Source: Girardia tigrina
Lineage: Eukaryota
NCBI GenBank assembly: GCA_001938485.1
Contig: MQRK01219542.1
Span: 1-56,202, forward strand
Direction of reading: 5' to 3'
DNA length: 56,202 nucleotides
Shown: in pieces, positions 3,626 through 56,202 of the stretch
How the letters are laid out: every line of letters begins with the position of its first letter
How positions within the stretch are numbered: position 1 is the first letter of the stretch
Made by a program: the position numbers and the translations under genes
The notes under the pieces: model-generated
The model's database searches: none
What the model saw: the letters and a program-made list of their open reading frames with translations, nothing else
Told to the model about the DNA's origin: nothing

Positions 3626-4463
3626 TGTGGCACTGGTTTTTCAAAATATTTTTTGATTGCTGGTGTCAAATATCAATTCAACTATCCGCCAACTGCGGAT
3701 TCCCTATCAACTTTGTTATTTTCCCAATTATCCGCCAACTGCGGATTTTTATCAAAATTCTGCTAATTTCCAATTATATTCCTTTGGGCGATGCAATGAC
3801 GCCGATTGGTTAAACCGATCATCATTCATCGCCCCAGAGGAAAATTTCATTTTTGATTTTTACAATTTTTTATATAAGTTTTTCTTTTTTCTTTTTAATT
3901 TGCATAATAATAATAATAATAATAAAAATTTTAATTATATAAAAATAAAAATAATAATAATAATTATACTTATTTTAATAATAACAATTCCTCTGACGAA
4001 CTTCTCCGCCCAAATCAGGAGTACCCTCATAATGAATGGGTCCCTGAGGAGAAAGGAGAAACTCGCCGAACAGGAATATAATAATTTTAATTCTAATAAT
4101 AATAGTAATAATAATAATAATATAAATAAAGATAGAATTAATAATGTTATAAATGAATATTAAATATAATAATAGTAATAATAATAAAAATAAATAAAGA
4201 TAAAATTAACAATATAAATAAATATTAAATTAATAATGATAATAAATATTTACTAAGATTTATATACATATATATTTCTTTATTATTATTATCCCAATTA
4301 ACCGCCTCGCGTCCCTGAGCAACCTGCTCAAACAAAGGGAAGGTTAAAAATGGATTATACGTATGATTTATTTGATTTATTTATTTACTTATTTTTTCTT
4401 TAACTTTTCATTCAGGACAACATTCCATACACTCTATATTTTTTCATTTATAGGATCGCAACA
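3626..4463. repeat. LTR-like segment containing a cluster of GC-rich hairpins separated by (AAT)n-rich spacers
   Basis: Termini TGTGGC...GCAACA; the right end coincides with the point where the adjacent mariner ORF is cut. Hairpins at 3684-3700, 3730-3746, 3779-3842, 3987-4077 and 4291-4355. No TSD seen. Confidence 0.4.
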
Positions 4464-5620
4464 ATTTCGTCCTCGGAGGGTAGTTTTCATTGGGGAGAAT
4501 AAATAAAAATCGGAGGGAACGAGGTCAGGTGAGTATGGTGGATGGGGCAATACACTGAACCTGATTTTCTGCAGCTTATTTACTGTTTTGTTGGTTGTGT
4601 GGGGTCTGGCATTATCGTGAAGGTAAGTAATTTGTCGAGCTCCTCCTTCCATAAGCCGCCTCCGCTTTTGTTGTATTGCAGCAACAAGACGATCCAGCTG
4701 TTGGCAGTAGGTATCCGTAGTAATTGTTTGTCCATGAGGGAAAACTTCCATTAGCAATACACCTTTGGAGTCCCAAAAAACTGAAATCATGTGCTTTCTG
4801 AGTGTAAGCACACAACTAACTTCAACTGGAGGATTGTCTCCTTCTCCTCACCAAGAACGATGATGTTGTGAGCCTCAATTATCCAAATATATCCAGGATC
4901 TATCTATGGTTACCAGTTGTCAAAGAAAATCAAAAGCCGATCGCTTTGCTTACAGCTCATTGCATATTCTTTCTCGATTAGCCATTTGTTCAGGGGACAG
5001 TAGATGTAGGATCTATAGATTACACAGGTATCTTTTCCCCATCTGAATGAGATGATTTCAAGATGTCTCCGGGGAAATCGCCAACTCAAGTTCTATTGAG
5101 TGATATGTGCTGTATTTGATGACGCTATATTGCAACAGCTGGTTTTGGACAATGTTCATTGACGGCCTTCCAGAGCGCTGTAGATTTTCCACATTAAAAT
5201 CGCCGTTGTTAAACTGTGTTACCCATCGACAGCAAGTGATCTCACTAACAGCACCACTTCCAAGTGCTGCATTCATCTCTTTACATATATCGAGGGGATT
5301 CAAATTACGTTTCCAGCAGTAATATATCATCATTCGAATATCACGTTGACTCAAATTCATTTTAACGCAATGAAAATACAACTTTCAAACAATATTTATT
5401 TTCGAAACAATTTGTTAACTGATATTTTGAAATTAGTTTTCTTACAAAAGGAAAAATTGAATATTTTTTAATTATATTTTACAAAATCATTCGCATATGT
5501 ATATGTTATCTATACTGTAAATATAAAAAATACATTTAAATACTATAAAAAATACATTTATCAATGCGTTTACTAGATAATTATAGAAACCCATCAATCA
5601 AAACTTTCTGGACAGATCTG
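4464..5620 (-). mobile_element. Mariner transposon, frameshifted and 3'-truncated
   Basis: ORF pieces with RSGRP, SVFWDSKGVL, LHDNARPH and HPPYSPDLVPSDFYLF. 5' TIR CAGATCTGTCCAGAAAGTTTTG on the minus strand, flanked by TA (5621-5622). Confidence 0.92.
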
Positions 5621-6669: not shown

Positions 6670-8152
6670 TATATAGAAAGCAAGCTAATATAAAGAATGG
6701 AGTAAAGTTAATTTTTGACCCTTTTTACGTAAAATGCAAAAACCTATTAGTCTATCTCTGAAACCATAACTATGCTTGGAAAAAATTCACTCCATAAAAA
6801 TGGAAAAAGATTTTTAAACTGATAAAAAGTATTGCATTGTAATTTAAAAGGACATTGTTAATGCTTTTAAGATATGTATTTATTTAATTTAGATTTGAAA
6901 TTTTCCTATTTATAGTTAAAAAGATGTTTATTGAAATTGTCAAAAAGCAGAATATCAACAGTTGAAGCTCTCATTATTCGATCTGAACTAACTTCTCAAT
7001 TTAAACAATAAGTTCAGGGGGAAATTTGATATGATGCATTAAGGTATCTCTAGGCTGAGTGTTCAATTACACATTTGCAGTATTTAGAAGATATCAATTG
7101 ACAAGCAAAATATTATATAGTTTGATCAAGTTTAATAACATTATTAAATGATGCGACAAAATTTCAGTAACAAAATATAACAAAAATCATTTCTTAGATT
7201 GCCTTGAAACACTCGGTGTACAAAACATGTTAAGAAAATTATCGATTTCACCATAGCCTAGTAAAATGTGAAAAGACAAATATCATTTAATTTTTAATAT
7301 TTATTATTTTACAAAATTACACAACATATTTCGTTATGAATAGAACATCTTCAGGTGGTTCATCTAGGCTTCAAATGGATAGTCCATATTTTATCATAAA
7401 AGTTTCAATTATCTCATTTTATCAATATTTTAGAAAATAAATGATATAGGATCACTTTTTTATTTCCATTTTAAGACTTTTCGACTTTGAATTAGAAGAA
7501 AAGATTTCTGAAAGACGTTGTCTTCAATGTTAAATATTATCTCCCCTTAATCAGTTTTACAATAGACGTTCTTTAAAAAGCACTTTTTTCTTTTGATTAT
7601 TTAAACAGAATATTTTTTGAATATTTAAATACGAATACGAAAACCTATTAGTCTCTGAATCCATATCTATATTTGGAAAGATTTCACTCATATAAATGTA
7701 AATATGTTTTTAACAATTTTTTCAATATTTTAGAAAAGCAATGCAAAACTGAATCACTTTTTTCTTGTAGTTATAAAACTAGTAAATCAAAATATTACAT
7801 TTTTTTATATCTTTTATTGATGTAGACAGAACTCTACTTTGCCAACATAGTTTTTAAAATTTAAAACATTTAACATAAAAAAAATTTTAATTAAAAATTA
7901 ATATAAACTACCTATATATAAGACGCGTATTTTCTGAAAATTGGTAATAATTGTAATGGATTAGACGCACGCGAAGATAAGATGCACCCAAGACAAGACT
8001 GACTGTCAACAATTTCTTTGCTGTACGCTGACACACAAGTAGGATAAATGATGCAATAAATGACATTTGAGTAATTATTACAACTACGTAACTATTACAA
8101 CTACGTCGCAGTGATGACCAGCAACTATACATGCCTCCCATTTTATATTATA

Positions 8153-9436
8153 TTAGGTTGGTCGAAAAATAATGGCGGTTTTTGAGCTTTATACTTTGTT
8201 TATCTACTTTGATATGTATATAAGTTTAAATACATTAGTGTTAGATATTATTTGAAATATTATGCCTAGCTGTATATTCCTATAGCCATTATTAACATAT
8301 TGCTGTTATTTTTTAGAATATTTACAGTGCTAAATTAATAATGGAAAAAATTAAAAGTCGAGCAATTTTCTTGTATGAATTTAAACTGGGTCGTAAAGCA
8401 GCAGAAACGGCTCGAAATATCAATAAAGCGTTTGGCAAGGGAACAGCTTCTGAGCGCACAGTGCAACGATGGTTCCGAAAATTTTCTGATGGAGATGAAA
8501 ACCTTGAAGATGAAGAAGGTCGTGGTCGTCCAGTTGCTGTGAACAACGACAATTTGAGGACAATAGTAGAAACAGATCCCCATACAACAATTAGAGAACT
8601 TGCAGATGGGTTGGGCATTAGTCATTCAACATTCCTGGATCACTTAAAACAACTTGGAAAAATCAAGAAACTTGATAAATGGGTTCCACATGATTTGAAT
8701 GAAAATCAAAAGAACCAACGCTATGAAATTTGTTCTGACAATCATCTTCGCAATAGAAACGATCCACTTCTTGACCATATTGTTACCTGTGATGGGAAAT
8801 GGATCCTGTATGATAACCGACGTCGATCTGCACAGTGGTTGGACAAAGATGAAGTACCGAAACACTTTCCAAAACCGAAACTAACACCCCGTAAGGTTAT
8901 GGTGACAGTTTGGTGGTGTTATGCTGGAATCATCTACTATAGTTTTTTGAATCCAGGTGAAACAATCACAGCGGAGAGGTACTGTAATGAAATTGATGGA
9001 ATGCATAAAAAATTGAAAACCCTTTGTCCGGGATTGGTCAATCGAAAAAGTCCCATCCTTCTTCATGATAACGCTAGAACTCATATTTCAAAAGTGACTC
9101 TTCAAAAGCTTAATGAGTTGGGCTATGAAACCCTGCTTCATCCACCATATTCACCAGACCTCTCACTAACGGATTTCTACTTTTTCAGGCATTTGTACAA
9201 CTTCCTACGTGAAAAAATTTTCAAAAACCAAAATGATACTCAAAATGCCTTCCAAGAATTCGTCGCTTCGAGAACCGATGCATTTATGCTGATGGAATAA
9301 AACAACTTGTTTCTCGTTGGCAAAAATGTATTGATGCCAACGGTTTATACTTTGATTAATAAACTTTTGTTTCTGTGAATTTGCACGTCTTTGAAGTTTG
9401 TGTCCCAAAACCGCCATTATTTTTCGACCAACCTAA
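8153..9436 (+). mobile_element. Full-length mariner element (1284 bp), cecropia/Hsmar1-like subfamily
   Basis: Perfect 30-bp TIRs TTAGGTTGGTCGAAAAATAATGGCGGTTTT; TA TSD at 8151-8152 and 9437-9438; inserted in the 5' non-coding part of the pogo element. Confidence 0.97.
8341..9359 (+). pseudogene. Mariner DD34D transposase with one frameshift near the C-terminus
   Basis: 319-aa ORF with WVPHDL, VTCDGKW, HDNARTH and HPPYSPDL. The true C-terminus YADGIKQLVSRWQKCIDANGLYFD* lies in another frame after ~9285. Confidence 0.93.
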
Positions 9437-9494
9437 TATAAGACACCCAAATTTTTCATATTTATACAAACCCTTTTATTAAATTTACCAAATT

Positions 9495-10797
9495 ATGTCA
9501 AAGCAAAGTCATATACAGACGATTTTAAATTAAATGCGATAAAGTTTGCCAAAGAGAAAGGCAATAGAGCGGCAGGTGGACAGTTCAACTGCATCGAGAA
9601 GAATATTCGAGATTGAAGGAAAGAAGACTACAGACAATGAATCTAAGAAAACGATACAAGCGAGGAAGTACAGTGAAATGGCTTAATTAGGAAGAAAATT
9701 TAGCAACCTGGGTGAGAGCACAGCGTGACAACAATCTTGCTGTGTCAACTGCTACCATCAAATTAAAAGCTAGGGTGATGGCATCGGAAATGAAGATTGA
9801 AGATTTCACTGGTGGATATGTAAACTGGGTCTACAAGTTCATGAAGCGAAACCAACTCGTGGTCCGTGCATGCACAACTGTTTACCAGAAGTTGCTAGAC
9901 GATTGGGACCAAAAACTTTCAAGCTTCCACACTTTCATCCGCAGCGAAATTTCCGAAATGAGCCTGACAAATGCAGATATCATCAATATGGACGAGGTTC
10001 CAATGACGTTCGATGTATCACCAAGTAGAACAGGTGCACAGAAAGGAGAAAAGACAATAACAGTTTCAACAACATGGCATGAAAGGACGAATTTTACAGT
10101 CGTTTTGGCCTGCACTGCATCAGGTATCAAACTTAAACCAATGTTGATATTTAAAAGAGTTACAATGCCAAGAGAATCATTACCTGAAGGAGCAGTTGTG
10201 GTCTGCAATAATAAAGGGTGGATGAATGCAGAGATGATGCAGAAGTGGACAGACAAGTGCTTCTGTACGAGACCCGGGACATTCTTTAAGACAAGGTCTC
10301 TTTTGATATTCGAATTGATGGCAGGGCATAAAGAATCCAGCGTACAACGATACATCAACCAGACAGGAACTCATTTAGCCGTGATACCCAGTGGCCTTAC
10401 CATGTTACATCAACCTCTTGATGTGTCAGTAAATCACCCTTTCAAGGCCTATGTCCGTGAAGAGTGGGATAAGTGGATGATGAGAGGACAACATTCATAT
10501 ACTTCGTGCGGTCGTCAGCGCCGTGCGATGTATGCTGAAGTATGCAAATGGGTTATAACTGCGTGGGAAAAAGTTAGAACAGAAACAATTGTGAATGGAA
10601 TCCCAAAATGCGGAATACTACATGATGCAGATGAAAGCGATGGTGAGGATGACGATGATGACGACTCTGTTGCTTCAGATTCCGAGCCAATCGCAGACGA
10701 AGATCGACAGGCACTAGTTATGGACGTCTTTGCCGAGGATTCTGATGACAACGAAAGCTTTAATGGATTCGATGTCAGCTACGACGATAAGAATTAA
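9495..10797 (+). pseudogene. pogo transposase; N-terminus disrupted, DDE_1 domain open (9712-10797)
   Basis: NMDEVPMTFD, FTVVLACTASGIKLKPMLIFK, KGWM, QPLDVSVNHPFK and an acidic tail. Stops and frameshifts lie upstream of 9712, and the second catalytic D appears as E (LLIFE). Confidence 0.9.
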
Positions 10798-25023: not shown

Positions 25024-26385
25024 TCATTTGATATTCAAATCGACAACTGAAGATGGCGCTGATTTAATGTTTCGTCTGAGAGAGATTAAAGGATATCGTC
25101 GCAACAGCGATTTCGTTGCTTGAATAAAAGGTCTTGGAGATTGTGTTTTGCCGTTTGGATTCTTATGAAAATTCGAAGTTTTTTCTAACTTTTTCTTTGA
25201 ATATTTTGTAGATTTTAGTTGAGATGTCGAAAGTTCGGCATAGTTTAAACCGTAGTTTTTTATTCTTGTCGAATAACTAAACCCACTTATATTGGGAGGA
25301 GTGGGAGCATCTAAAATTCTGTTCCTTCGTTTTAAATATGGATCATTAAGATGTAATATTGACGTAATGGGGAATGGTGGTGTTATATTTAGTTGACTTT
25401 GGGATGTTTCCATTCTCACATCTGATGATCCACTGAGATCTAGAGCTTCGGTTTGTGGTTCGGAATTAACGACAGTTTGAACTTGAAGAGGTTTACTAAT
25501 CAATAATGGTGATTTAGAAGAATTTTCCTTCATATTCTGAGTTTGTCGGTAACCGTATTTATAAAGAATATCAATTATTTCCGGAGCGTTTTTAAATATT
25601 GGTATAGGAATAGGAATAGGAACAGGAATGTAAAGAGGTCCGGAGACCGGTATTTTAACTGGCTCTGTTGATTTTGCATGTAAATTAAAATTTGTTAACG
25701 AAGGAGGCGGACGAGAATTGAGAAAATCTGCATAATTATTAAAGGTATGATAAAGTGGATTTAGGTTATGTTGTGTTAGATTTGAGATTTGTGGACCCAA
25801 AGATGTATCGGAAGGAAAGATACGTTTAGCCGATTTATGAAACTTGGTGAACGATGAACAACGAGATTTCTTTAAAGGAACAACGGGAACGTTTTTGTTC
25901 GTTTTATTTGTAGGAGTTGGAATTTTATTCCCATTTCCGGATTTTTTCTCATCACTGTGTTTCGATCCAGTTACAGATTCCGAATCAACATCGAGAATAT
26001 TTTCTTCTTTCTTAATTAACAACACATCCGATGTTTCTTTTTCGAAAACCGTTTTTTTGTAATTATTCAAACATATATTATTACAGAAATGCAATTGTTC
26101 AACACTTGCAATACAACCGTTTTCGTTTGATTCAATAGATTCACTTTTATTAGACGTTTTCGATGTCGCGCTATATTCACTTCCGGATTTCGTTCCAGTT
26201 TCGGAAAGAGATACTCTGTCGCACCAGTCACAGGTTTTACCACGCTTGAAAGATGCCCGTCTGGACAACTCGAAACATTTTTCACTACAAAATGATTTCT
26301 TGATTTTGTCATTTCCAGGATAGTTAATGAAAATATTCTCTGAAACTGTGATATCACACCAACCACATATTGGCACTCTAGTCAT
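25024..26385 (-). CDS. SOBP: Sine oculis-binding protein homologue (SOBP), ~453 aa, single coding exon
   Basis: Two FCS-type zinc fingers: CGWC...SFCSEKCFELSRRASFKR and CDWC...LHFCNNICLNNYKKTVFEKET, plus the PVPIPIPIPI proline box characteristic of SOBP. First in-frame ATG at 26385 (the ORF track starts at a non-ATG codon at 26496). Confidence 0.92.
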   Translation of the reverse strand: MTRVPICGWCDITVSENIFINYPGNDKIKKSFCSEKCFELSRRASFKRGKTCDWCDRVSLSETGTKSGSEYSATSKTSNKSESIESNENGCIASVEQLHFCNNICLNNYKKTVFEKETSDVLLIKKEENILDVDSESVTGSKHSDEKKSGNGNKIPTPTNKTNKNVPVVPLKKSRCSSFTKFHKSAKRIFPSDTSLGPQISNLTQHNLNPLYHTFNNYADFLNSRPPPSLTNFNLHAKSTEPVKIPVSGPLYIPVPIPIPIPIFKNAPEIIDILYKYGYRQTQNMKENSSKSPLLISKPLQVQTVVNSEPQTEALDLSGSSDVRMETSQSQLNITPPFPITSILHLNDPYLKRRNRILDAPTPPNISGFSYSTRIKNYGLNYAELSTSQLKSTKYSKKKLEKTSNFHKNPNGKTQSPRPFIQATKSLLRRYPLISLRRNIKSAPSSVVDLNIK

Positions 26386-27109
26386 ATTTATTGAATTATC
26401 TACAAAGAAATTTGATTCAAATATCGAGTTAGAATTATTGAAAAAAGATTTTAATTTGATATTGGAAGAAATAGATAGAGAAAATTTTATGTACAAGTGT
26501 TAAATTTCGAGAGAACTGCCACGTAAGTTGTGTTAATCAATGGACTTGAAAATGGTTTCAATTTACAGTCCTTGATAAAGTATTGGATTACATTGTGAAA
26601 TGAAAACTATACAAACAAATTTCATTTATTTTTTGACAAGAAATAACAGTCTCAACAACATTTCGTCATTGTTGAATAAATGTTTTCAGGAAATCATTCC
26701 TATCACTTGGAATGAAAACGATATATTATGTTTTATTAAGATTGAATTTCAACTCGTTGAGATTTTGCTGTACGAAAAAGAAAAACGAAAATTATCGATT
26801 CTCGAATTTCTCAGTAATTTTAAGAGAAATTACTCTTTTGGCAAAATTTTTTTATCAATTGATTTTATTATTTTAGTATAACATTGAAATTTTATCATTC
26901 CTTCATTAAACATAGGTTACAATGAATGAAAAAGAAATTATATTTCCTGGTCGAATTTTCATTTTCAACATTTTATTCTTTGCTTTTCATAAACAGACGA
27001 AACAAAACGATTATTTAACATATGTTTTTGCTTGATAAAAATAAACAAGAAATAAATATTTGAAATTATTTTAATTTAAAATTTTTGAATGTTTTTTCTT
27101 AATCTAAAA

Positions 27110-37236: not shown

Positions 37237-40200
37237 TGTTACGGTCGAGAAACGGAGAGTATAACTACATATGTAAGGAAAGAAATATAAAGGGAAAAGC
37301 TGTTTCAATTATTAAAAATTAATAACTCAAGAAGAAAAATGCCAATACATTTATTATGAAAGAAAATTTTAATAATAAAAGTTCCGTAGATAATCTTGAA
37401 GGCGATCCGACAACGTCCGAAGGTCCGAGAAGAGTCCAAACACTGGAAAAGAAATAACTAATTGAAAATAAATCCCAAAAACTAATTAAGTCACCTACTG
37501 GACGACTTAATTTGACCTCCGTTGTAACTAGGAGGTCAACAGACCCTCCCCGTAGAGTCCTTGAGAAGGCCGACCCCTGGATGCCACCTGTGAGATCCTG
37601 GCGTGTTCACCTGAGAAGATATACAAATTAATTAGAAAAGACAAAGGCCAATTAAAAAAATAAAGACAAAGAGCAATTAAAAAACTTACCATGAGTCAGG
37701 CCCACAAAGCAAAAATATCATCACGCGATGAATAGTCATCGGTGACGTGGTCGCACACCAATTCAAAATTTGCGAGTTTGAGGCGACACACAAACCCAGA
37801 AACCTATAATGAAACGAAATAGTTTAAAATTTTGAAAATTTTCATCGAAACACACCTACCCGAATCGGCCAATCCGCTCACGAGAAAAGCCCAGACACTT
37901 GTCTGGCAGAAGTCAATTAGTCCAATTAAAAATTAATATTGGATGCCTCTCCAGCCCTACAAATACGGTAATCATTTCACCGTTAAGCGCACAAATTTAA
38001 CAACGATAAAAAACACAATTTTAACATAATAATTTTGTACAAACTATTTGCACTACTTTAAATACCTTTTGACGACAACGAGTTCCAGAAGCGTACGTGA
38101 CACGAAGAAAAACAAACAACTGAAGGAAAGAGCACCGAACGAGAAGAAGAAACAGAACGCGAACCGAGATTGAACAAGGACAGCGGAATCCACGAATATC
38201 CCGCTATAACCAACCGACGGTTTACGATAACGCTTCATCCGAGTGACGCGCCGACGAGAAAGAGGACCAAACGACCGAGACATTTGACCGGCTCCCGACT
38301 TGCGAATTTAATTGTAAATTTTAATTTATTATGTTTGCTTGTGGGTCACTAATTTTTAATAAACATATTGAATAATATTTTTGCAGTTTTACATTTCATT
38401 TTACTTTATTTTACTTTTGTTGTTTATCACAGTTATTTAGGAAGTTTATTAATGAATAGTAAATACTTATTTTCCGAGTAAATTAGTCCGTCGCCCGGCC
38501 GCCGTCGCCTTCGACTATGCCCCGAGATAATTTACGATCGAATGCGCAATGGAAGAATGTAGGGAATCATGCAGACCCAATAATTGTTAATGTGATTTCT
38601 ATATCGATGGAATCATTTGTTAGGGAAGGTTGCGTCGAGGCACTTCTCATTAGCGCGGAGCCGCGAGCCCACCCGCATCGGGCAACATAACGTATCGAGA
38701 CAAAATTCTCTTTTCATTATTATGTGTTACATTATAAATATAACTTTATGAGTATGAATTTTATTTTTATACCTTTTAGCAGACCAAGCTGATTTGTTCT
38801 ATGTTGGTTTGGAATCTGACCTAAGATTTAGATTTTAATTTAGGGTTTTGATTTTAGTAATTGGCATGTAATTCGATCGAAAACGAGATTAGAAATTTTT
38901 TTCAGAAGTAATGCGTGATAGGGAGCGGACAAAGTTAGACGCGCGATAAAAAATGAAAAAAAAATTATAGACTTACTGTAGGCTAGAGATTTATTTTACC
39001 TCGCAAAAGGCGTCTCAAAGTTCGGTTTCGAAAGTTAAATTCGAGCGACCTTCGATCAGAAATAATTTACATTATTAAAAGAAGAAAAAAAATTTTTGTC
39101 AGATTTATTGGTTTTGGAGATAAATAATTCCGTAGATAAGAGTTTTTTTAACTTAATGATAGGAATTTAATGAAATACGTAATAATAGTACGAATAATAC
39201 GAATTAATGAAATAAGCAATAATAATAAGAATGATAAGAATTTAATGAAGTTAACGTTTTATAAATAGAAAAGTAAGAACAAAACTTAGCGGAATTTTAT
39301 CGTTATAAAGATTTTATTTTTAACCTTCTATGAATTTTGTATGTTAGAGTGAGACTGTTATCAGTTCTAGCGTTAATTCGAGTAGCGAATTAATTTAGTT
39401 ATGAAATAGGTTATTCTGAAGAATCAATTTAATGGAAGTTTTATTTGATAATAGCCTAATTGTTTGGTTGGTTTATTCATTCTTTTAATTAAAGTTTTTA
39501 ATCTAGTTTAACGAGTCCAAATTAAGTGATAATTTATTCATTTCATGATGACTTTTAATGACAATTATAAGGCGCTAATAATTCTGATAATAACAATTTA
39601 TTTCATAATTAGGATTTTTACGTTGAATCTAATTATTATTCTTTCAAATAGGCATTATTTCGATTCCGCTATCGGTTATACAAAACTTGTAGAATGATAT
39701 TAGAATTAAAATATAGATTAAAATTCAGAATTGTTCCGTGAGTTAGATAATTTGAATTAGATGAGCATTCTGCTTTGGTAACTTAGGCATTTTTTACGAT
39801 AGTTTATGATTGATTTTAATTTAATATATATGAGCTTATATAATATATATAATATATATATATTTTATATATATAATATTTTAATTTAATATATTTAATA
39901 TGTCTGAGCTACATCCTGAATGAGTTACTTTATTAGTAAACTTTCACTGATAGAATAACGGGTTAAGCTAGCGCTGCTTTTCATTCTGTCGATACTATGA
40001 TGAAAACGAATATCATTAGAAAAGTTTGTCCAGGAATACTTCGACACTAATAATAAAAAAAGTGCTTAAATACACGAGCCATTTGAACGAAATTATGGGA
40101 AACCGTATTTAATAGGTAAGGGACTCTACTGACAGTAACGTTTTAAACTATTTTGAACGAATTATCATATTCTACTAAGGGCTAATAATTGATAGATCAA

Positions 40201-41297
40201 TATCGGACCTTTGAACCAATTTAGGTGGCGAATCCTTGGTCGCGAGATAAATCCATGTCATAATAATATTTTACGATACAATGACACTTTCAAGTCCTAA
40301 TATTGATATAGGAATACATAATATACGCTACATACCCCGAACGACGCTTTGCTAGGCAGGGGGCCCATAGCCCATCCGGTCTATATTATAACCCGATGGC
40401 CCTTCAGACTCGGCACTGCCAGGCAGATGTCGAGCGAGAAGAGGCGTCCGACCCATAAATACAGCTAGCAAGTTAGATAGGTATTAAAACGAGTTATAAA
40501 AATATCCTAAATCGAGATTGGGTTGTGGCTGACCCTTAATAGCCACTGGGGGCTCTGAGTCTTTGAACATGTTTATACTCAAATGGGTCGTGACATTTAG
40601 CACACTCTCTGTAAGTATATCGAGAATGTGGTGGATCATTTCCTTGATTGATTAATTAGGAACTCGTTAAATAAAAATAATTTTATTACGATTTTTACAT
40701 AATTTCAATTTTTAATTTTAAATAAATTTTTTTATAAATTTTAGAGTTAAGAATCTTTTAAAATAAAAGAACATGAATTACTACCGTTAAAGCATACTAC
40801 CCAATTTTTAATTTTATTCAATTAAGTAAAGTTTTTATTTTTTATATCTTTTCGATAAAATGTTATTCAGCAAAAATGTCTTTATTAAATGTCTTTAATA
40901 GAATGTCTTAATTTAGTGGAATAAATTTTTTTATATCTAGGGCATAATATCGTTCGGCTAATTGGGGTGATATGATTCCGAATCATTGTTCCCTATAAAA
41001 GGATGAATGAGCAGATCACGTGAAATCTAATCAATATATCAACAAACGGCTAATTTACCCTTTTTAATATATAACTAACAAATAAAATTAAAATATAGCA
41101 TTAGATAATAGTATTTAATATGATATGTAATACGATTACAATAAAACTAACAGGAGTAAAACGAAGGTATAATAATAACAAATTACAGAGCATGAAATCA
41201 GAATATGAGGGGGTATAACTAATACAATTAATTTACTTTAATCATATTCAGAAAAAATATCATAATAAATTGATACGGATATAAATATTTCGTAATA
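37237..41297 (-). mobile_element. Candidate giant (~4.06 kb) solo LTR or LTR-like insertion
   Basis: Termini TGTTACG...CGTAATA (one mismatch from an inverted repeat); CpG-rich islands unlike the flanks; minus-strand AATAAA at 37350-37355 near the left end; 12-bp direct repeat TATTGTCACAAT at 37218-37229 and 41296-41307; no long ORF. Confidence 0.55.
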
Positions 41298-47913: not shown

Positions 47914-50900
47914 TGTGGGATCAGAGCCGTAGTGAGGGTGGTGCGAGCGGTGCGGCCGCACCGCGAGCATGGGAGCCAAAATCGCAAAATGACCAATTTT
48001 AATTTTGTTTGTTTTTATTATATATTAAAGTTGAAAAGTTATAAAATCAAAATTTTGTTAGTTTTTGGTTATTATTTTATATGCAATATGGCAACAACAA
48101 TTTAATTGACTTTGCATTATTTATTAATTATCTATAATCTATTTGGCACCACAAGTATTTAACGAAATTACTCGAATCATTCGTTCGAATCAATCACTCA
48201 GCACTGGGTTGCGTTAAAGAGCATAGCTACTGATTCAGCAGCTAAGCGATTTAATGCATCATTGCACGTGCTTTGTTTCGTCATAAATTTACATCATAAA
48301 GCGTAATATTTAGTTAATGAAAGCCCTGTAAAAAATCAGATAAACTTAGAATTAGTGAATACATTATGTAATTAAAAAATTGAATTTAAAATAAAAAAAT
48401 AGTCAAAAACTATAATTTGATAAACAACGCATTAGAAATGAACCGTCTAAGAAACCTTCTGGTGCAGCATAAACGGTTGAAAAATCAAAGAGATAATGAT
48501 GCACGTAAAATGCAAAATCAATGGAAAACTTGGCTGAGACTAAACTATAATAAGCCAAGTACGGATTCTGCGGAAGACACCAATAACGGCCCAGAAGAAA
48601 ATGCAAGTGAATGTGAAAATTTTGGAATAAAGCAGATAGAAGAGCACTTTGAATCAAGTTCTTCATGGCATGGATCAATAAGTTCTGAAGTCCAAGTACT
48701 AACTGAGGAAGTTTTGGAAACTGAAAATGAGAATGAACAAGAAAATGTCGAGAAAGTTCATGCAGTTGAAATCATACAAAACAATAATTATTCTATGGTT
48801 GACGAAGTATTGGAAAGCCAGCAGCTTAACTTTCACGATCCTAAAATGTGGCCATTGATCAATGACGAAGTAAGATGTTGTTTGGTTGAACACGGACCGG
48901 ATCAAAATAAAAATGATTATTTTCCAACTGATTCTGGAAACAGACGTTTCAATAAAACATGGTTTGATAAAATTCTTCCAAACGGTGAGAAGGTGAATGG
49001 ATGATGTACAGTTCTTCAAATGCTACACTTTTCTGCTTCCCGTGCATTCAACAGTAAAACAAAGCAGTTTTGCTGATCTATCTAAAGGCTTTTGTGATTG
49101 GGTGCATCTAAGTCCGAGAGTGCCAGATCACGAAAAACGTCTGAGAGAAGGTAAGACAATTGATTATGATATTCAGAAAGCAATACAGTATGAGAGGGAA
49201 AAATGGCGAAATATTTTAAAAGTCATTGTTGATGTAATTATGTTCTGTGAGAAGAATAATTTGTCTCTTCGAGGTAATACTGATGTAATTGGTGAGACTG
49301 GATGTGGAATATTCTTAAGCACAATGATCAATTTGAAAAATGCTACGCCAATGGATATTTTAAAATTTATTCATTCCTATTCCTTAGTTGAAATTTATCC
49401 AAACACAGAAATTACTGTACGAATTTTTCTTACAATTCCAGTTACTGTTATGCCATGTGAGCGAAGTTTTAGTAAACTTAAACTTGTAAAAAATTATCTG
49501 AGATCATCTATGGCCCAAGAGCGCTTGTCTAATTTGTCAATTTTGTCAATCGAATTCGATGTGGCTAAATGTGTTAACTATGATGACATAATTGATGACT
49601 TCGCTTCTTTGAAAGCAAGAAAAAATCACTTCTGCTAAACTTTGTAATTATTAGACATTGAATTAGGTGTGTAATAAAAGTAGTTCTTTTAAAAATGTAT
49701 AGTTAATGTATTACTAAATGTATTAAATGTATTATAAAATGTAAAATTATTATAAAATGTATTTAAATGTATTACTAAAATACAAAGTATTTTAGTAATT
49801 AGTAAATACTGTAGACCAATATTTTAAGTAAAAATAATTAAATCAAATAAGACTGATCAGATCTCTGTAGGCTTTATAACAATTTATAATAATAATTATA
49901 GTAGTCTTTTTTGTTTAATGGCAAAGCATCCATGAATTTATCCGAATAAATTGATGTTTTCTTATAGCTACGCGATGCAAGGCTTAAGCATCAATGCTGC
50001 GTCATAGAGCATGGGAATACGAACGTCCAAAGTCAATTTAATTCTTTTAAGGCATAATTTTTGTAGTGAATCTTTTTCACGCTGGGGGCGCCAGATTTGA
50101 ACTTCGCACAGGGCGCAATTTTTCCTTACTACGGCTCTGTGTGGGATAAATAAAATGTTATTTGTTTTATTCGTCAAAAGTCGGTATCAGAGTTGTTTTT
50201 GAAAATAAAATTTGCAGGACTTATTTTTATTTTTCTAGAATCTCACAAGCTTTCGTGGCAATGAGAACTTTGAAGATAGTACCGCAATACGACGGGCGAG
50301 AAAACATCTCGGTATGGCTTGAGAGGTTTCGTGAATGCGCGGAAACACTCCGCGAATATAAACTGACGATGTTGCAGTTGGCGCTGTCGAGTGAGACAGA
50401 AATCGTTTTCGATGATTTAAAGAAACGACACGTCAGGATTTCGAGAAGAGCGCAACGGCGCTCACAGAAGCTTTCGCCCCAAGTTCGAGGCTGTCGTGGG
50501 CGAGTTTTGCTTCCAAATGACTGGCTCCCAGAGAGAGAGTTGATTTCTTTATGTTAGATCTGAAACGTTTAGAGGTCGTAATTTGCGGCGGTGCAGGAGG
50601 CGGTGAGGCTTTTATGACCCATGCATTCATAAATGGACTACCTGAAGCGGCGCTCGGAAGGGCGAAAGGTTTAGGCTGATTGGTTCGGTTGGCGCGCGTG
50701 AACGGCAAGGCAACAGGATGTCTCTCTGAGGAAGTAGTGGCGGNNNNNNNNNNNNNNNNNNNNNNNNNNNNNNNNNNNNNNNNNNNNNNNNNNGGTAAAC
50801 ATGCTAGAATATCTTCGTCCACCGACGAATTAACATGCTTCCGCTGCGATGGGAACGGGCACATGACGCACGAATGCGCATCAGGAAAGCGACGCCTTCA

Positions 50901-53043
50901 ATTCACAACCAAACGAGAATCGAACCAATGGGGGCAAATGGGCTGGATTGCTTCAGTTGCGGCCTCATGGGTCACATTGCAAGAGACTCTCTCAGAGCAG
51001 AGCTGAAACCGGCAGGAAACGGACCACAGGTTCCAACTGCTGGTTGGTTGGGTGCCTGAATATGGAGACGCGTAAATAACAATCATCACAGCAACCGTGT
51101 GGGGAAGGAAAGTGAAAGCACTGATTGGGGGTTCCACCATCAAATCTTGTCCGCGTAATAGAATCGGTGCAGATGATGAACGAATCAGAGGTGAATGTTC
51201 AATTCAGAGTGTCAATACCGATCCAGTGCAGCGGGAAGCAAATCGTGTGCCGCGTCCTAGTATTGCCGGAAGTCATCTCGTTGAAACTAACAGGGAGTTG
51301 CGAAGGTTCCGGAGTTGCCTGACCGATTGACACGACGGAATCTGTTCTCGTGGGTCGGACAGCTGGTGGGCCATTTTCCAGTCGGCGGCTGGTTGAGGCC
51401 AGCGTGCAGCTTCCTTAATAGAATAGCCAGTTACGGCGGATAGGATGACGAAGTGGACCGAGCGCTGTGAACATCGCTTAATAGTTGGAAAAACGACTGG
51501 AGAGAGAAGACCTAGTTACCTGTCGATGGGAAGTTCCCAACTGCAAACAAGAAAGAGTGTGATGCAACGCGAGCTCTTTTGCAACAGGTGTCTCTGTAAA
51601 GATAGGGAAGCAGTGGTCGAAGATGCATCTTAGTCTCGAAAGGAGAACGATGCAGCTCGCATAAACTTGGCGGAACTCGAAGCGGTGAATGAAGCAATCA
51701 AAGCGGCGTCGGCATGGGGATTGAACGATTTAGAAATAATGACCGTATCCGCCAGTGCCAGTGCTAACCAACGCCATTAGGGGCGATAAACCGATCAAAG
51801 CTAGTGGAATGAGCGAGCTGCTGGTCAAACGAATCATCAGTTCTATTAAAAGGACCATTGAAGAGGAACAGCTACAGGAATAGTGGAAGTTCAGCAGAAA
51901 ACAGAGTAGACCGCCTCACTCGCGTACATAGCGACTGATTAATATCAGTAAAAGAGCCAATGGGAGCATCAGTAGTAGCAATCGAGGGGGAGCAAGAATC
52001 GGCAGACAGTCTAGAGAAGCTCCACCAAATTAACCATTTCGGAGTGAGACGGATGAAGTTTCTGGCGACGAATTTGTGGGGTCCGGGACGAGTATCAGTA
52101 AGCCAAATTCAAGCAGTGCTGAAAGAATGTCCTCAGTGCGCATCGATCGNNNCCGCCACATTAAAATGGGAAAGGCGAATTGGGCGTCAAAGGGACGTAG
52201 CAACGGCTTGCCATGAACGTGACGCACACCACTGAGGGTAGGTTTATGGTAATTATTGACTGTGGTTCAGGGCGGTTCTCCGTATGGAGAAAAATCGAAT
52301 CAGAGAACAATGACGATCTGTGTACCGCGATCAAGTCGATGCTTAATGAATTTGGCTCTCACAGGAGCTACTGATGGACAATTTTGCGACTAACCGAGGA
52401 GCAGCAGTCAATAAGTTGCTGACGGAAACGGGTTTACAAATCCGGTTTCGATGTACAAATCGACCAAGTGGAAACAGTATTGTCGAGCGATGCCACCGGA
52501 CAATCAAGCGCATGGTGGCGCAGAGTGGGACGCCGATCGTGGATATGGTAGCGTGGTATAACGCTACTTCAAATTCACCAAGCTTAATTCCAGCATCGAT
52601 AGTTTTCACGCAGAATCGGTCGACTTTGCGAACCGACTATGTCAGACGCGCCCCTGAAGAAAGAATAATACCGCCCGACGAAGTTTAATGGCCCAGGAAC
52701 AAACGGTTATAGCGACAGTTCTGATAACGACGACGAGCAGCTAATGAATTGCGCGTGAGATGTTTCAGAAAGACAAGCACCTCGGGATGAAGCGACAGAG
52801 CAGAGGTCACATCGAGCGATCGTGCAACCAGCGAGATTCAAGAACCTTGTCTGCACCGGGCAGAAGCACACAGAGACGGGCAGTACTGCCCAGTGGACGG
52901 AGTCCGTGTGCGTATGTGCCTTAAGGGCAAGGGAGAGTGTGGGATAAAAAAATGTCATTTGTTTTATTCGTCAAAAGTCGGTGTCAGAGTTGTTTTTGAA
53001 AATAAAATTTGAAGACTTATTTTATTTCTTCTAGAATCCCACA
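47914..53043 (+). mobile_element. Ty3/Gypsy LTR retrotransposon derivative with ~106-bp LTRs (5' LTR split by the hAT; internal region 50248-52937)
   Basis: LTRs 50140-50247 and 52938-53043 (TGTGGGAT...ATCYCACA); PPT AAGGGAGAG. Coding remnants: gag knuckles CFRCDGNGHMTHEC and CFSCGLMGHIARD, protease KVKALI, RNase H HINLAELEAV, integrase H-H-CPQC, VIIDCG, LMDN and GNSIVERCHRTIK. Confidence 0.92.
47922..50139 (+). mobile_element. hAT transposon (ZMYM1/Tip100-like), internally deleted, 2218 bp
   Basis: 16-bp TIRs CAGAGCCGTAGTGAGG / CCTTACTACGGCTCTG; perfect 8-bp TSD TGTGGGAT (47914-47921 and 50140-50147). ORF pieces show NLSLRG (DUF4371-like) fused to YPN...FLTIPVTVMPCERSFSKLKLVKNYLRSSMAQERL. 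Confidence 0.96.
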
Positions 53044-55164
53044 ATATATTTAATGCTTATAAAAAAATGAAAATAAATTGTTCGGATAGAAACAATTTTA
53101 ACAATATGGCAGAAGATGTACACAAAGATGAAATTAAATTTTGTTGTGTCAATTGAACTCTACAATTAAAATTTAAATTTCGACCCAATGACGAGATTTA
53201 AAATTCATATGATGTATGACCATCCTGTCGAGACGCACACGGCTCCAGGAACTCTTGGGAAAGATGGCTGCCCAAAATGATTTTTAGAAAAGTCCGTATC
53301 GGTAATAGTTATATTATTCAACGTTTTCTAGCGATTGTTTCACGATAGGGAATTCGTGTCTTCTTGAGGCACACAAATAAATAAAAGGACTTTGAGCTTT
53401 TTATTAAACGATAAAGACAGTAATATCGTATAATATATTTAATAAAAGTATCTGTATCGATTTAGTATAAAATAAAAAAGAAAATAGACGATGAATTGCA
53501 CAAAAAACGAAATTGAGACAAAATGATGTTTTCAAATAATAAAAATAATTTCAAAATATAAAATTCTGACTAAATAAATGGTTTCAAATGATGGTCAAAA
53601 TCTTAAATTAAAATGATAAAAATCTCAATAAAAGATTGTATGAATATAAACATTTTCATAGACATTAATATTATAATTAGATGGTTCAAATGCAAATCTA
53701 AAGAATTTACAAAAAAACTTTGGAAAATTAATTAAATAAATGATGCCCATACTAACTTCATTAAACACTCAGTGAAAGTTTCTTAATGTAGCATTATTAG
53801 ATTCATCAAACAGCGTTTTTTTTAAGATTATGGTTAATTTAAACAAACTTATTTAAATTGAAATTTTTTTATTAAAAAACGATTATTTGTTTATAATATT
53901 TTAGTGACATATTTATTTGCATATAAAATTATCCGTCCTAAATGCAATTAACTCTTTATCGATTAAAGTTTAATAATTCGTATTAAATTAATGAAACTTA
54001 TTTATATGGAAAAGACAAATCAGTGAATTATTCTTATATTTACCAATATAATTAGTCACTGTATATTATGTAAATATTTTTGTCTATAAGTTCCATAATT
54101 CTTCCAGTAACAAACAAAGATTATTATTCTTAGATTTTCTTTCTATTTGAGAATTTTAAATTAAGATTTTTTCATTGTAAATTCAAAATTTTCAAATTAA
54201 AATAATATTTTTCTTTTCGATTTTGTGTATTGATTTTAAATCTCATTTATAGTTGGATACTCAAAATATATTGGAGGTTTTTAATGTAGATAGAATTTTT
54301 AAATTTGAAATTTTGGATTTTCATATTATTCTTTAATGATATTTTTATCTTTAAATGATAATTTCGTATAAATTTGGTTGTTTTAATTTTACAGTTAAAC
54401 GATAAAGATTTCTATTGAGTAAATTCTGCATTCATGCATTAATCGCTGCATTTATCATTTAAATATTTTTATTTATCGGCCATGTATATTTTATAAAATT
54501 CTTATCAGAGTTAATATTTACCTGAAAATATATATTTTTTAATATATATTCAATTTCAACAAAAGTAAATTCGACAAGATAAAAGCAATGCAGTTAGAAT
54601 AGTGTACCCATGTAGATAAAGGTGAATCTCTCAAAGATTAATTCTGGATTCCATCTTATCAAGACTGGTTCAACAACTACAAAACTGTTTGTGCGAAAAA
54701 ACTGCATATGGTTATCCTAGTTGCACAGATTTCTGGCGTGTACGCATTAGAAGGGATTAGAAGTATATATCCCCCCGAAGAAATTTAAATTTCGATCTTT
54801 ATTAACCTCTTTGGATTTCTATTTTAAATATTACAAATGGGAAGCAGGACATTTCAACATTGAAAATTTTTTTGCAGATTAAAAGCTTACGATTTAAGGA
54901 AATTACAATTACAATAGTGGTAAATGAAATGCAATTTTAATGCAAACTAAAAATTGGAGAATTGAACAATGAATTATAAATAATACAAGCACATGAGCAA
55001 GTATAATTTGAAATAGAATATAGATATGATAAAANNNNNNNNNNNNNNNNNNNNNNNNNNNNNNNNNNNNNNNNNNNNNNNNNNNNNNNNNNNNNNNNNN
55101 NNNNNNNNNNNNNNNNNNNNNNNNNNNNNNNNNNNNNNNNNNNNNNNNNNNNNNNNNNNNNNNN

Positions 55165-55233
55165 TGGTAGAGCGGAGGACTGTAGTGTATTGCGGTGATC
55201 CTTAGGTCGGTGGTTCAAATCCGCCTCATCGGA
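55165..55233 (+). tRNA. trnY: tRNA-Tyr(GTA) with intron, 5' part hidden in an N gap
   Basis: Identical to the 3' 69 nt of the complete copy; followed by a T run. Confidence 0.9.
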
Positions 55234-55572
55234 ATTTTTTTCGACATTGAAAATTTTTTTGCAGATTAAAAGCTTACGATTTAAAGAAATTACAATTACA
55301 ATAGTCGAAAAAGAATTCGGGGAATCACTAATATCCGTAAATCGTAAAATTGATAATGAGATTTTAAATCTGTTTTTTAACAACCTTAACATGCCCTCCG
55401 ATCACTTCTTCCTTGACAGCACANNNNNNNNNNNNNNNNNNNNNNNNNNNNNNNNNNNNNNNNNNNNNNNNNNTGGAGAATTGAACAATGAATTATAAAT
55501 AATACAAGCACATGAGCAAGTATAATTTGAAATAGAATATAGATATGATAAAAGTGATCAATGTAATCACTA

Positions 55573-55587
55573 CCGATGATAGCTCAG
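55573..55587 (+). pseudogene. Truncated 5' fragment of tRNA-Tyr
   Basis: CCGATGATAGCTCAG followed by a re-start of the upstream spacer (local duplication or assembly artefact). Confidence 0.6.
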
Positions 55588-55667
55588 CACATAATAATAC
55601 AAGCACATGAGCAAGTATAATTTGAAATAGAATATAGATATGATAAAAGTGATCAATGTAATCACTA

Positions 55668-55752
55668 CCGATGATAGCTCAGTTGGTAGAGCGGAGGACT
55701 GTAGTGTATTGCGGTGATCCTTAGGTCGGTGGTTCAAATCCGCCTCATCGGA
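55668..55752 (+). tRNA. trnY: tRNA-Tyr(GTA) with a 12-nt intron (55705-55716)
   Basis: Acceptor stem CCGATGA/TCATCGG+A; D arm GCTC/GAGC; anticodon stem GAGGA/TCCTT with GTA at 55701-55703; T arm GGTGG-TTCAAAT-CCGCC; 73 nt after splicing at 37/38. Confidence 0.98.
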
Positions 55753-55754
55753 AG

Positions 55755-55760
55755 TTTTTT
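55755..55760 (+). terminator. RNA polymerase III terminator
   Basis: T6 run 2 nt downstream of the tRNA discriminator base. Confidence 0.85.
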
Positions 55761-56202
55761 CGACATTGAAAATTTTTTTGCAGATTAAAAGCTTACGATT
55801 TAAGGAAATTACAATGACAATAGTGGTAAATGAAATGCAATTTTAATNNNNNNNNNNNNNNNNNNNNNNNNNNNNNNNNNNNNNNNNNNNNNNNNNNNNN
55901 NNNNNNNNNNNNNNNNNNNNNNNNNNNNNNNNNNNNNNNNNNNNNNNNNNNNNNNNNNNNNNNNNNNNNNNNNNNNNNNNNNNNNNNNNNNNNNNNNNNN
56001 NNNNNNNNNNNNNNNNNNNNNNNNNNNNNNNNNNNNNNNNNNNNNNNNNNNNNNNNNNNNNNNNNNNNNNNNNNNNNNNNTTTTTTCGACATTGAAAATT
56101 TTTTTGCAGATTAAAAGCTTACGATTTAAGGAAATTACAATGACAATAGTGGTAAATGAAATGCAATTTTAATGCAAACTAAAAATTGGAGAATTGAACA
56201 AT

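Follow-up and report, generated by a model that had tools for sequence, protein, structure and literature searches.

The window, a 56,202-nt stretch of a Girardia tigrina contig (MQRK01219542.1), contains a solo long terminal repeat (LTR) of an apparently Burro-like giant Ty3/gypsy element at positions 37237–40595. The LTR is 3,359 nt long and reads on the plus strand, with the termini TGTTACG and CGTGACA, at which its genomic copies break off sharply. The TG...CA termini and the short target-site duplication expected of a Ty3/gypsy solo LTR are both present: the tetranucleotide TTTA flanks the LTR on either side, and 4-bp duplications are likewise found at four of five other LTRs with both ends. 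One contig of the run X1, described below, consists of the two flanks of 37237–40595 joined, with the LTR absent. A genome search with the segment gave 69 matches from the 40 of 1,463 candidates that were scored, and the 3′ end of the LTR has 2,499 candidates in the genome, which indicates a large family. The ends, the duplication and the family copies bear out an earlier interpretation made from the letters alone (the sequence-only reading), in which the segment was called LTR-like.

Mariner-type transposases are located elsewhere in the window, at 8148–9441, with perfect 35-nt inverted repeats, and at 4434–4847. A pogo/Tc5-type DDE_1 transposase lies at 9691–10797, and a hAT transposase remnant with a dimerisation domain at 48390–49638. 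In a small gypsy-like element (50149–53014), the gag/integrase-like frames are broken, and direct repeats of 69 nt lie at 50149 and 52946. The ~500-nt tandem repeat at 54850–56202 contains a tRNA gene (Rfam, 55668–55752). The 491-aa open frame on the minus strand at 25024–26499 gives a weak Pfam hint of SOBP (E 7e-4), below the cut-off.

The orientation of the element is set by three features. The trinucleotide TGG is found within 4 nt after the 40595-type end 137 times, as opposed to nine times at the 37237-type end. One common primer site, which we take to match tRNA-Pro, is shared by 17 of 20 loci with TGG at the 40595-type end and by none of nine on the other side. A purine tract adjoins the 37237-type end, behind reverse transcriptase (RT), RNase H and integrase, in two of six stretches; the first purine-tract pattern gave a single match and was uninformative. 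The sequences flanking the LTRs are mostly unrelated to one another. Since the primer site, the polypurine tract and the direction of pol agree, the element reads on the plus strand, and the chain of introns described below is antisense to it. The antisense introns are present in five whole 5′ LTRs with a primer site; introns 3–5 are found in one 3′ LTR that has a purine tract. The sequence-only reading had placed the chain in sense orientation in the R region, where retrotransposition should have purged it. The chain is instead antisense and lies in U3, and the paradox of unpurged introns dissolves, because the introns are antisense to the element. The TG...CA ends, the primer site and the gypsy pol rule out a Penelope-like pseudo-LTR or a DNA transposon.

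Past the primer site, the element contains, in order, several ORFs of ~150 aa, a probable gag with two weakly matched CCHC knuckles, and weak ubiquitin-like and Bcl-xL-like stretches. A single frame holds a Monjiviricetes fusion domain (PF24664, E 2.6e-82), a protease (E 0.007) and a dUTPase (E 0.005). The env of the mononegavirus-fusion type is thereby positioned between gag and protease, as expected of Burro-like elements, and RT, RNase H and integrase follow in this order straight after the protease/dUTPase match. Weak matches below the cut-off also occur in the Burro order: Ty3 capsid (E 0.001), CCHC (E 0.017), ubiquitin (E 1e-4) and Bcl-xL (E 0.076). BIR, ankyrin and MATH domains were absent from the ORFs scanned, which are a subset from broken copies. 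One copy has ~16.7 kb of internal region between the primer site and the dUTPase, and another has 7.4 kb between the dUTPase and the 3′ LTR; these lengths, added from two copies whose sequences were not joined, agree with the near 25 kb, including upstream accessory ORFs, expected of Burro. The ~150-aa accessory ORFs that stand in a row ahead of gag belong to no Pfam family (loci L092, L094, L095 and L098–L101). A 750-aa ORF with a hydrophobic start and without a Pfam family is located between integrase and the 3′ LTR (L181:4866–7115).

Burro and GYPSM1 are giant Ty3/gypsy elements of dugesiid planarians, according to the parts of the description consulted (PMC6431247). Among the giant repeats reported from planarian genomes, the Burro type predominates. 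The present element resembles them in its upstream accessory ORFs, the mononegavirus-type env before the protease, the dUTPase-like stretch, the RT–RNase H–integrase order, the LTRs of several kilobases and the thousands of copies, and may also resemble them in its weakly matched gag with two CCHC knuckles and its ubiquitin-like and BCL2-like stretches (PMC6431247, in part). By this match to the described architecture, in which some accessory domains are weak or unseen, the element appears to be Burro-like.

The 3′ end of the LTR (40335–40595, plus strand) is structured, conserved and common to all subfamilies examined. Its 260 nt adopt a common fold, with an alifold score of −52.7 compared with −12 for column shuffles. 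Two-sided changes are present in six of 50 pairs, and several of them split the copies about 10/11, so they perhaps stem from few events. The primer-site motif is repeated ~45 nt before the LTR end at 40595. Searched against Rfam, the region 40335–40595 gave no match; it is possibly a packaging or priming element.

The U3 region (37237–37980, plus strand), whose boundary is placed by the TATA box, precedes R and U5; we infer the U3/R/U5 borders as drawn. The sense TATA box at 37958–37965 reads TACAAATA in this copy and TATAAATA/G in 27 of the 33 copies that bear the motif. The box TA(T/C)AAAT(A/G) is found in 33 of 49 copies, 640–920 nt into the LTR; a narrower pattern had caught 20 of the 49. 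A CCAAT box (37869–37873, plus strand) precedes the TATA box by ~85 nt and falls within antisense exon 2. In one promoter type, CCAAT lies at about −85 relative to the TATA box, and ATTGG at −38. The sense AATAAA at 38358–38363, ~400 nt past the TATA box, is the likely R/U5 signal; AATAAA occurs ~370–470 nt downstream of the TATA box in most copies long enough to include that region. U3 looks modular, as promoter, exon 4 and last-exon types combine differently among copies (L061, L066, L023, L112, L153 and others), which suggests recombination between subfamilies.

The sequence-only reading had proposed four GT–AG introns on the minus strand, AT-rich between GC-richer exons and followed by AATAAA. 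All four GT–AG segments are present, with a GC content of 0.24–0.27, compared with 0.46–0.55 in exons 1–4 and 0.36 in the last exon. The signal after the chain, at 37355–37350, is the antisense poly(A)-like signal AATAAATGTATT (37350–37355, minus strand). The first of the four segments, proposed intron 1 (37957–38065, minus strand, 109 nt), is unsupported as a spliceosomal intron, because its GT–AG ends are neither kept across copies nor removed in contigs. Its acceptor is the sense TATA box read backwards, and this site is without AG in 16 of the 33 copies with the TATA motif. The donor is present in eight of 20 copies checked. The X1 contigs contain no junction for this intron, and one of them reads through it. 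Introns 2–4 are positioned upstream of the TATA box, in U3.

Antisense intron 2 (37804–37859, 56 nt) is present in 19 of 49 copies; it is missing from ~60% of the copies and is replaced in the other promoter type. Antisense intron 3 (37611–37689) is 79 nt long here and 53 nt in its shortest relatives. Of its two tandem acceptors, this copy lost the upstream one and kept the downstream one. In the family, the upstream acceptor AG is retained in 45 of 48 copies, as is the donor GT. Antisense intron 4 (37443–37498) has tandem donors at 37498 and 37494, giving introns of 56 and 52 nt, respectively. The second GT is the family-wide donor (43 of 48 copies, compared with 19 of 48 for 37498), and a GT..AG intron of 47–57 nt is found in 41 of 48 copies. 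The GT/AG conservation thus stood for introns 3 and 4 and failed for intron 1. A fifth intron of 46–51 nt is present in 18 of 49 copies, which belong to some subfamilies. The antisense AATA(A/T)A-TGTATT motif, the poly(A)-like signal or its variant, occurs in 41 of 49 copies, 73–203 nt inside the LTR, as AATAAA in 24, AATATA in 16 and AATTAA in one.

The copy set comprises 49 distinct LTR starts, in 48 of which an exon motif served as anchor, and the counts are not independent, as the copies are related. Intronless genomic copies did not appear: none of the 48 lacks intron 3 or 4, in a set retrieved by unspliced queries and by end motifs. Among 19 representatives less than 85% alike, the donor columns have conservation scores of 0.89–1.0 and the exons have means of 0.62–0.71. 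The interior of intron 3 scores 0.61, and that of intron 4 scores 0.78, above the exons. An intron-like pattern, written after the sequences had been seen, matched 183 times in antisense and six times in sense over 52 LTR starts, three of which were later dropped as nested or false, compared with 20.8 matches in dinucleotide shuffles. The density of the pattern is 3.5 per kb in antisense U3 (nine whole LTRs) and 0.34 per kb in the rest of the window.

One sample yielded four runs (X1–X4) that cover parts of the stretch; they were used as contigs, and none is on record as RNA. The very uneven cover of the flanks in X1 (1.5 versus ~100) indicates that this run is probably RNA. Six of the 11 joints listed for X1 are exon–exon junctions that skip introns at GT–AG. 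Three of them span intron 2 (depths 7.2, 7.3 and 10.2), one spans intron 3 (8.2), and two span intron 4, one for each donor (11.6 and 19). In four of the six contigs, the letters agree with the junction that splicing would give in specific paralogues. The short side of the junction measures 21–30 letters in five contigs and 58 in one. The junctions foreseen by the sequence-only reading were therefore found for introns 2–4 and not for intron 1. No such junctions are present in the contigs of X2–X4, and none of four joints at a second copy, L116, is canonical. X1 contigs run unspliced through the LTR and flank of L116 (L116:900–3500) at a depth of 80–135, as read-through or DNA would give; this LTR is probably read through inside a host transcript. 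The unspliced cover of L116 means that most of the coverage is unspliced. X1 has low cover at 38800–40250 and a dip near the TATA box, neither of which places transcription starts or ranks expression. The splicing of the antisense introns is observed at a low level in one probable RNA run, a thin record. Introns 2–4 are real spliceosomal introns: copies retain the GT–AG ends, and contigs of one run lack the introns.

Some of these features would also be expected if the motifs were parts of an enhancer or of a nucleosome-spacing array, composed of GC blocks and AT linkers at intervals of about 160–175 nt with AP-1 and CCAAT sites, and their use by the spliceosome were incidental. The donor-to-donor spacing is ~160–178 nt in several subfamilies, the length of exon 4 is fixed, the interior of intron 4 is conserved, and the heptamer TGA(C/G)TCA, which we take to be AP-1-like, adjoins the intron 3 donor (37692–37698) and occurs in 34 of 49 copies. 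The junction contigs are shallow next to the unspliced majority, and the acceptor of intron 1, a TATA box in reverse, is exactly such a by-product. However, both GT and AG are retained at three to four separate introns, with a strict strand bias of 183 to six and intron lengths of 46–57 nt, and the junctions stem from several paralogues and from both tandem donors. We therefore consider incidental splicing of DNA-level motifs improbable, even though selection on DNA may hold some of them, namely the interior of intron 4 and the AP-1-like site at the intron 3 donor.

Tests on exon 4 and on the 76-aa ORF gave no coding signal. Exon 2 (37860–37956) contains stops in all three frames, as the sequence-only reading had noted. 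Antisense exon 4 (37495–37610), counted from the acceptor used across the family, is 120 nt long in 38 of the 48 copies, at a mean identity of ~58%. This length is a multiple of three, and the larger indels of the exon are −3, −9, −12 and +12, as would be expected if the unit were an accessory gene on the antisense strand, captured or ancestral, that has decayed or codes for a micropeptide; the element has many accessory ORFs. The best antisense frame of exon 4, however, is open in nine of 48 copies, without codon periodicity and without synonymous excess in any frame, and the lengths of exons 3 and 5 vary freely. In 20 spliced single copies, in which one to three introns were recognised, the longest frame starting with ATG has a median of 47 aa and a maximum of 82. 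The 76-aa ORF proposed as a micropeptide (38053–38283, minus strand), which is antisense to R, is indeed open in this copy, stays open for 75–95 aa in 15 of 20 rows and has no stops in nine close copies. In these nine copies its synonymous share is 0.11, compared with 0.28 in column shuffles, which gives a micropeptide no support, and it has no Pfam match. An off-frame BLOSUM p of 0.01, one among 24 ORF and exon comparisons and with 11 stops, was treated as chance. A protein-coding antisense gene of the hbz type was rejected, as no conserved open frame shows purifying selection, and an accessory gene in any state of decay is a very unlikely origin of the unit.

A global RNA fold shared among the copies of exon 4 was not found (mean z +0.18), and nothing in the LTR scored above the Rfam gathering threshold. 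A Y RNA was rejected, with 29.3 bits against a threshold of 38 and a match that leans on an insertion of this copy. The hairpin that the sequence-only reading described at 37512–37539 exists in this copy; it depends on a 12-nt insertion, is found in one of 49 copies and is not a feature of the family. A smaller hairpin or palindrome, GGGTC-N4-GACCY (37533–37546, minus strand), is family-wide, with five pairs and one-sided G–U changes only.

The antisense strand is the better fit for the small hairpin, as might be the case if the spliced RNA acted in trans to limit the element, either through base pairing with the genomic RNA at its U3 end or as a source for small-RNA silencing. By position, the antisense RNA and the 3′ U3 of the genomic RNA are complementary. 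The antisense RNAs of TART have been proposed as such regulators, in the parts of PMC1636488 consulted, and planarian type A piRNA clusters are described as rich in antisense LTR sequence in the excerpts of 10.64898/2026.01.28.702291. The same excerpts describe type A clusters as poorly polyadenylated, with intronless gene-like parts, and an element would presumably gain little if its diverged subfamilies all retained a silencer of the element itself. A self-limiting role in trans is thus unlikely.

We propose that the U3 of this Burro-like solo LTR contains three short antisense introns that are likely spliced from a non-coding RNA made by a backward-firing LTR promoter, as predicted from its motifs, and we assign this reading a probability of about 0.6. 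On the likely production of a spliced non-coding RNA, it agrees with the sequence-only reading. The identity and orientation of the LTR, the family-wide splice signals and the junction contigs are observed; we infer the start and end sites. The U3 of every new copy of a retroelement is templated by the sense RNA. On this RNA the introns read CT..AC, and they are therefore inherited intact through retrotransposition. The LTR promoter would fire both ways, with the backward RNA beginning near the CCAAT/TATA core; the promoter motifs on the sense strand are located just beyond the first antisense donor, which counts for the proposed reading. The backward RNA would lose two to four short introns and would end, probably polyadenylated, at the AATAAA-like signal ~100 nt inside the LTR.

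The antisense unit may act in cis, by making the backward polymerase finish inside U3 and by giving its product the form of an mRNA, a function that we consider plausible, at somewhat less than even odds. Termination inside U3 would be brought about by efficient short introns together with a defined last exon. Antisense transcription from the 3′ LTR would then stay out of pol, and that from the 5′ LTR would stay out of host DNA. The product would look like a normal mRNA and not like a precursor of small RNAs. The retention of splice and end signals while the exon sequence drifts points to such a role in cis, and the absence of a coding signal and of a global fold in exon 4 is as expected of it. 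The absence of intron 2 from most copies and the AATATA form of 16 of the 41 end signals count against the proposed reading as a whole, and the fixed 120-nt length of exon 4 is not accounted for by containment. If the unit acts in cis, a retroelement keeps introns to manage promoter direction and silencing, which makes the family a testable case, and each of the thousands of solo LTRs would count as a locus for a spliced lncRNA. More tentatively, and with considerable doubt, we speculate that Burro-like U3 regions carry a dedicated antisense cassette of three to four introns, invisible to splicing on the genomic RNA, that disguises the backward transcript as host mRNA, stops it inside the LTR and keeps the very large, retrovirus-like element from triggering its own silencing. 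With each solo LTR, the host genome would then acquire a spliced lncRNA gene ready for use.

The present analysis provides a first anatomy of a Burro-like LTR, with a family-wide multi-intron antisense unit inside U3. The element differs from Burro/GYPSM1 in that BIR, ankyrin and MATH domains are not seen in the ORFs scanned, and the consulted parts of PMC6431247 are silent on LTR introns and antisense RNA. A literature search that did not extend to the original Burro paper (Grohme 2018) returned no report of introns in the U3 of Burro or gypsy elements, and a search on HeT-A gave no match; PMC11410931 and PMC4558846, both consulted in part, provide context.

Retroviral LTRs harbor comparable antisense units, among them hbz of HTLV-1, aph-2 of HTLV-2, the antisense RNAs of BLV and the U3 antisense starts of MLV (PMC10186651, in part). 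They share with the unit described here a bidirectional LTR promoter, which is predicted in our case, and a spliced antisense RNA, which is non-coding in BLV (PMC10186651, in part). In contrast, the RNAs of the retroviral units extend beyond the LTR, into host DNA or the internal region, and mostly encode protein, and the consulted parts of PMC10186651 describe no multi-intron unit confined to U3. A close resemblance is found in Drosophila TART, the terminal repeats of which give rise to antisense RNAs with several short introns, mostly of 53–104 nt, and no long ORF; as in the family studied here, intron size and spacing are similar across diverged subfamilies (PMC1636488, in part). TART is, however, a telomeric non-LTR element with antisense RNAs of 5–13 kb across the element (PMC1636488, in part), whereas the unit of the Girardia LTR is ~0.5 kb long and is predicted to end inside the U3 of a true LTR.
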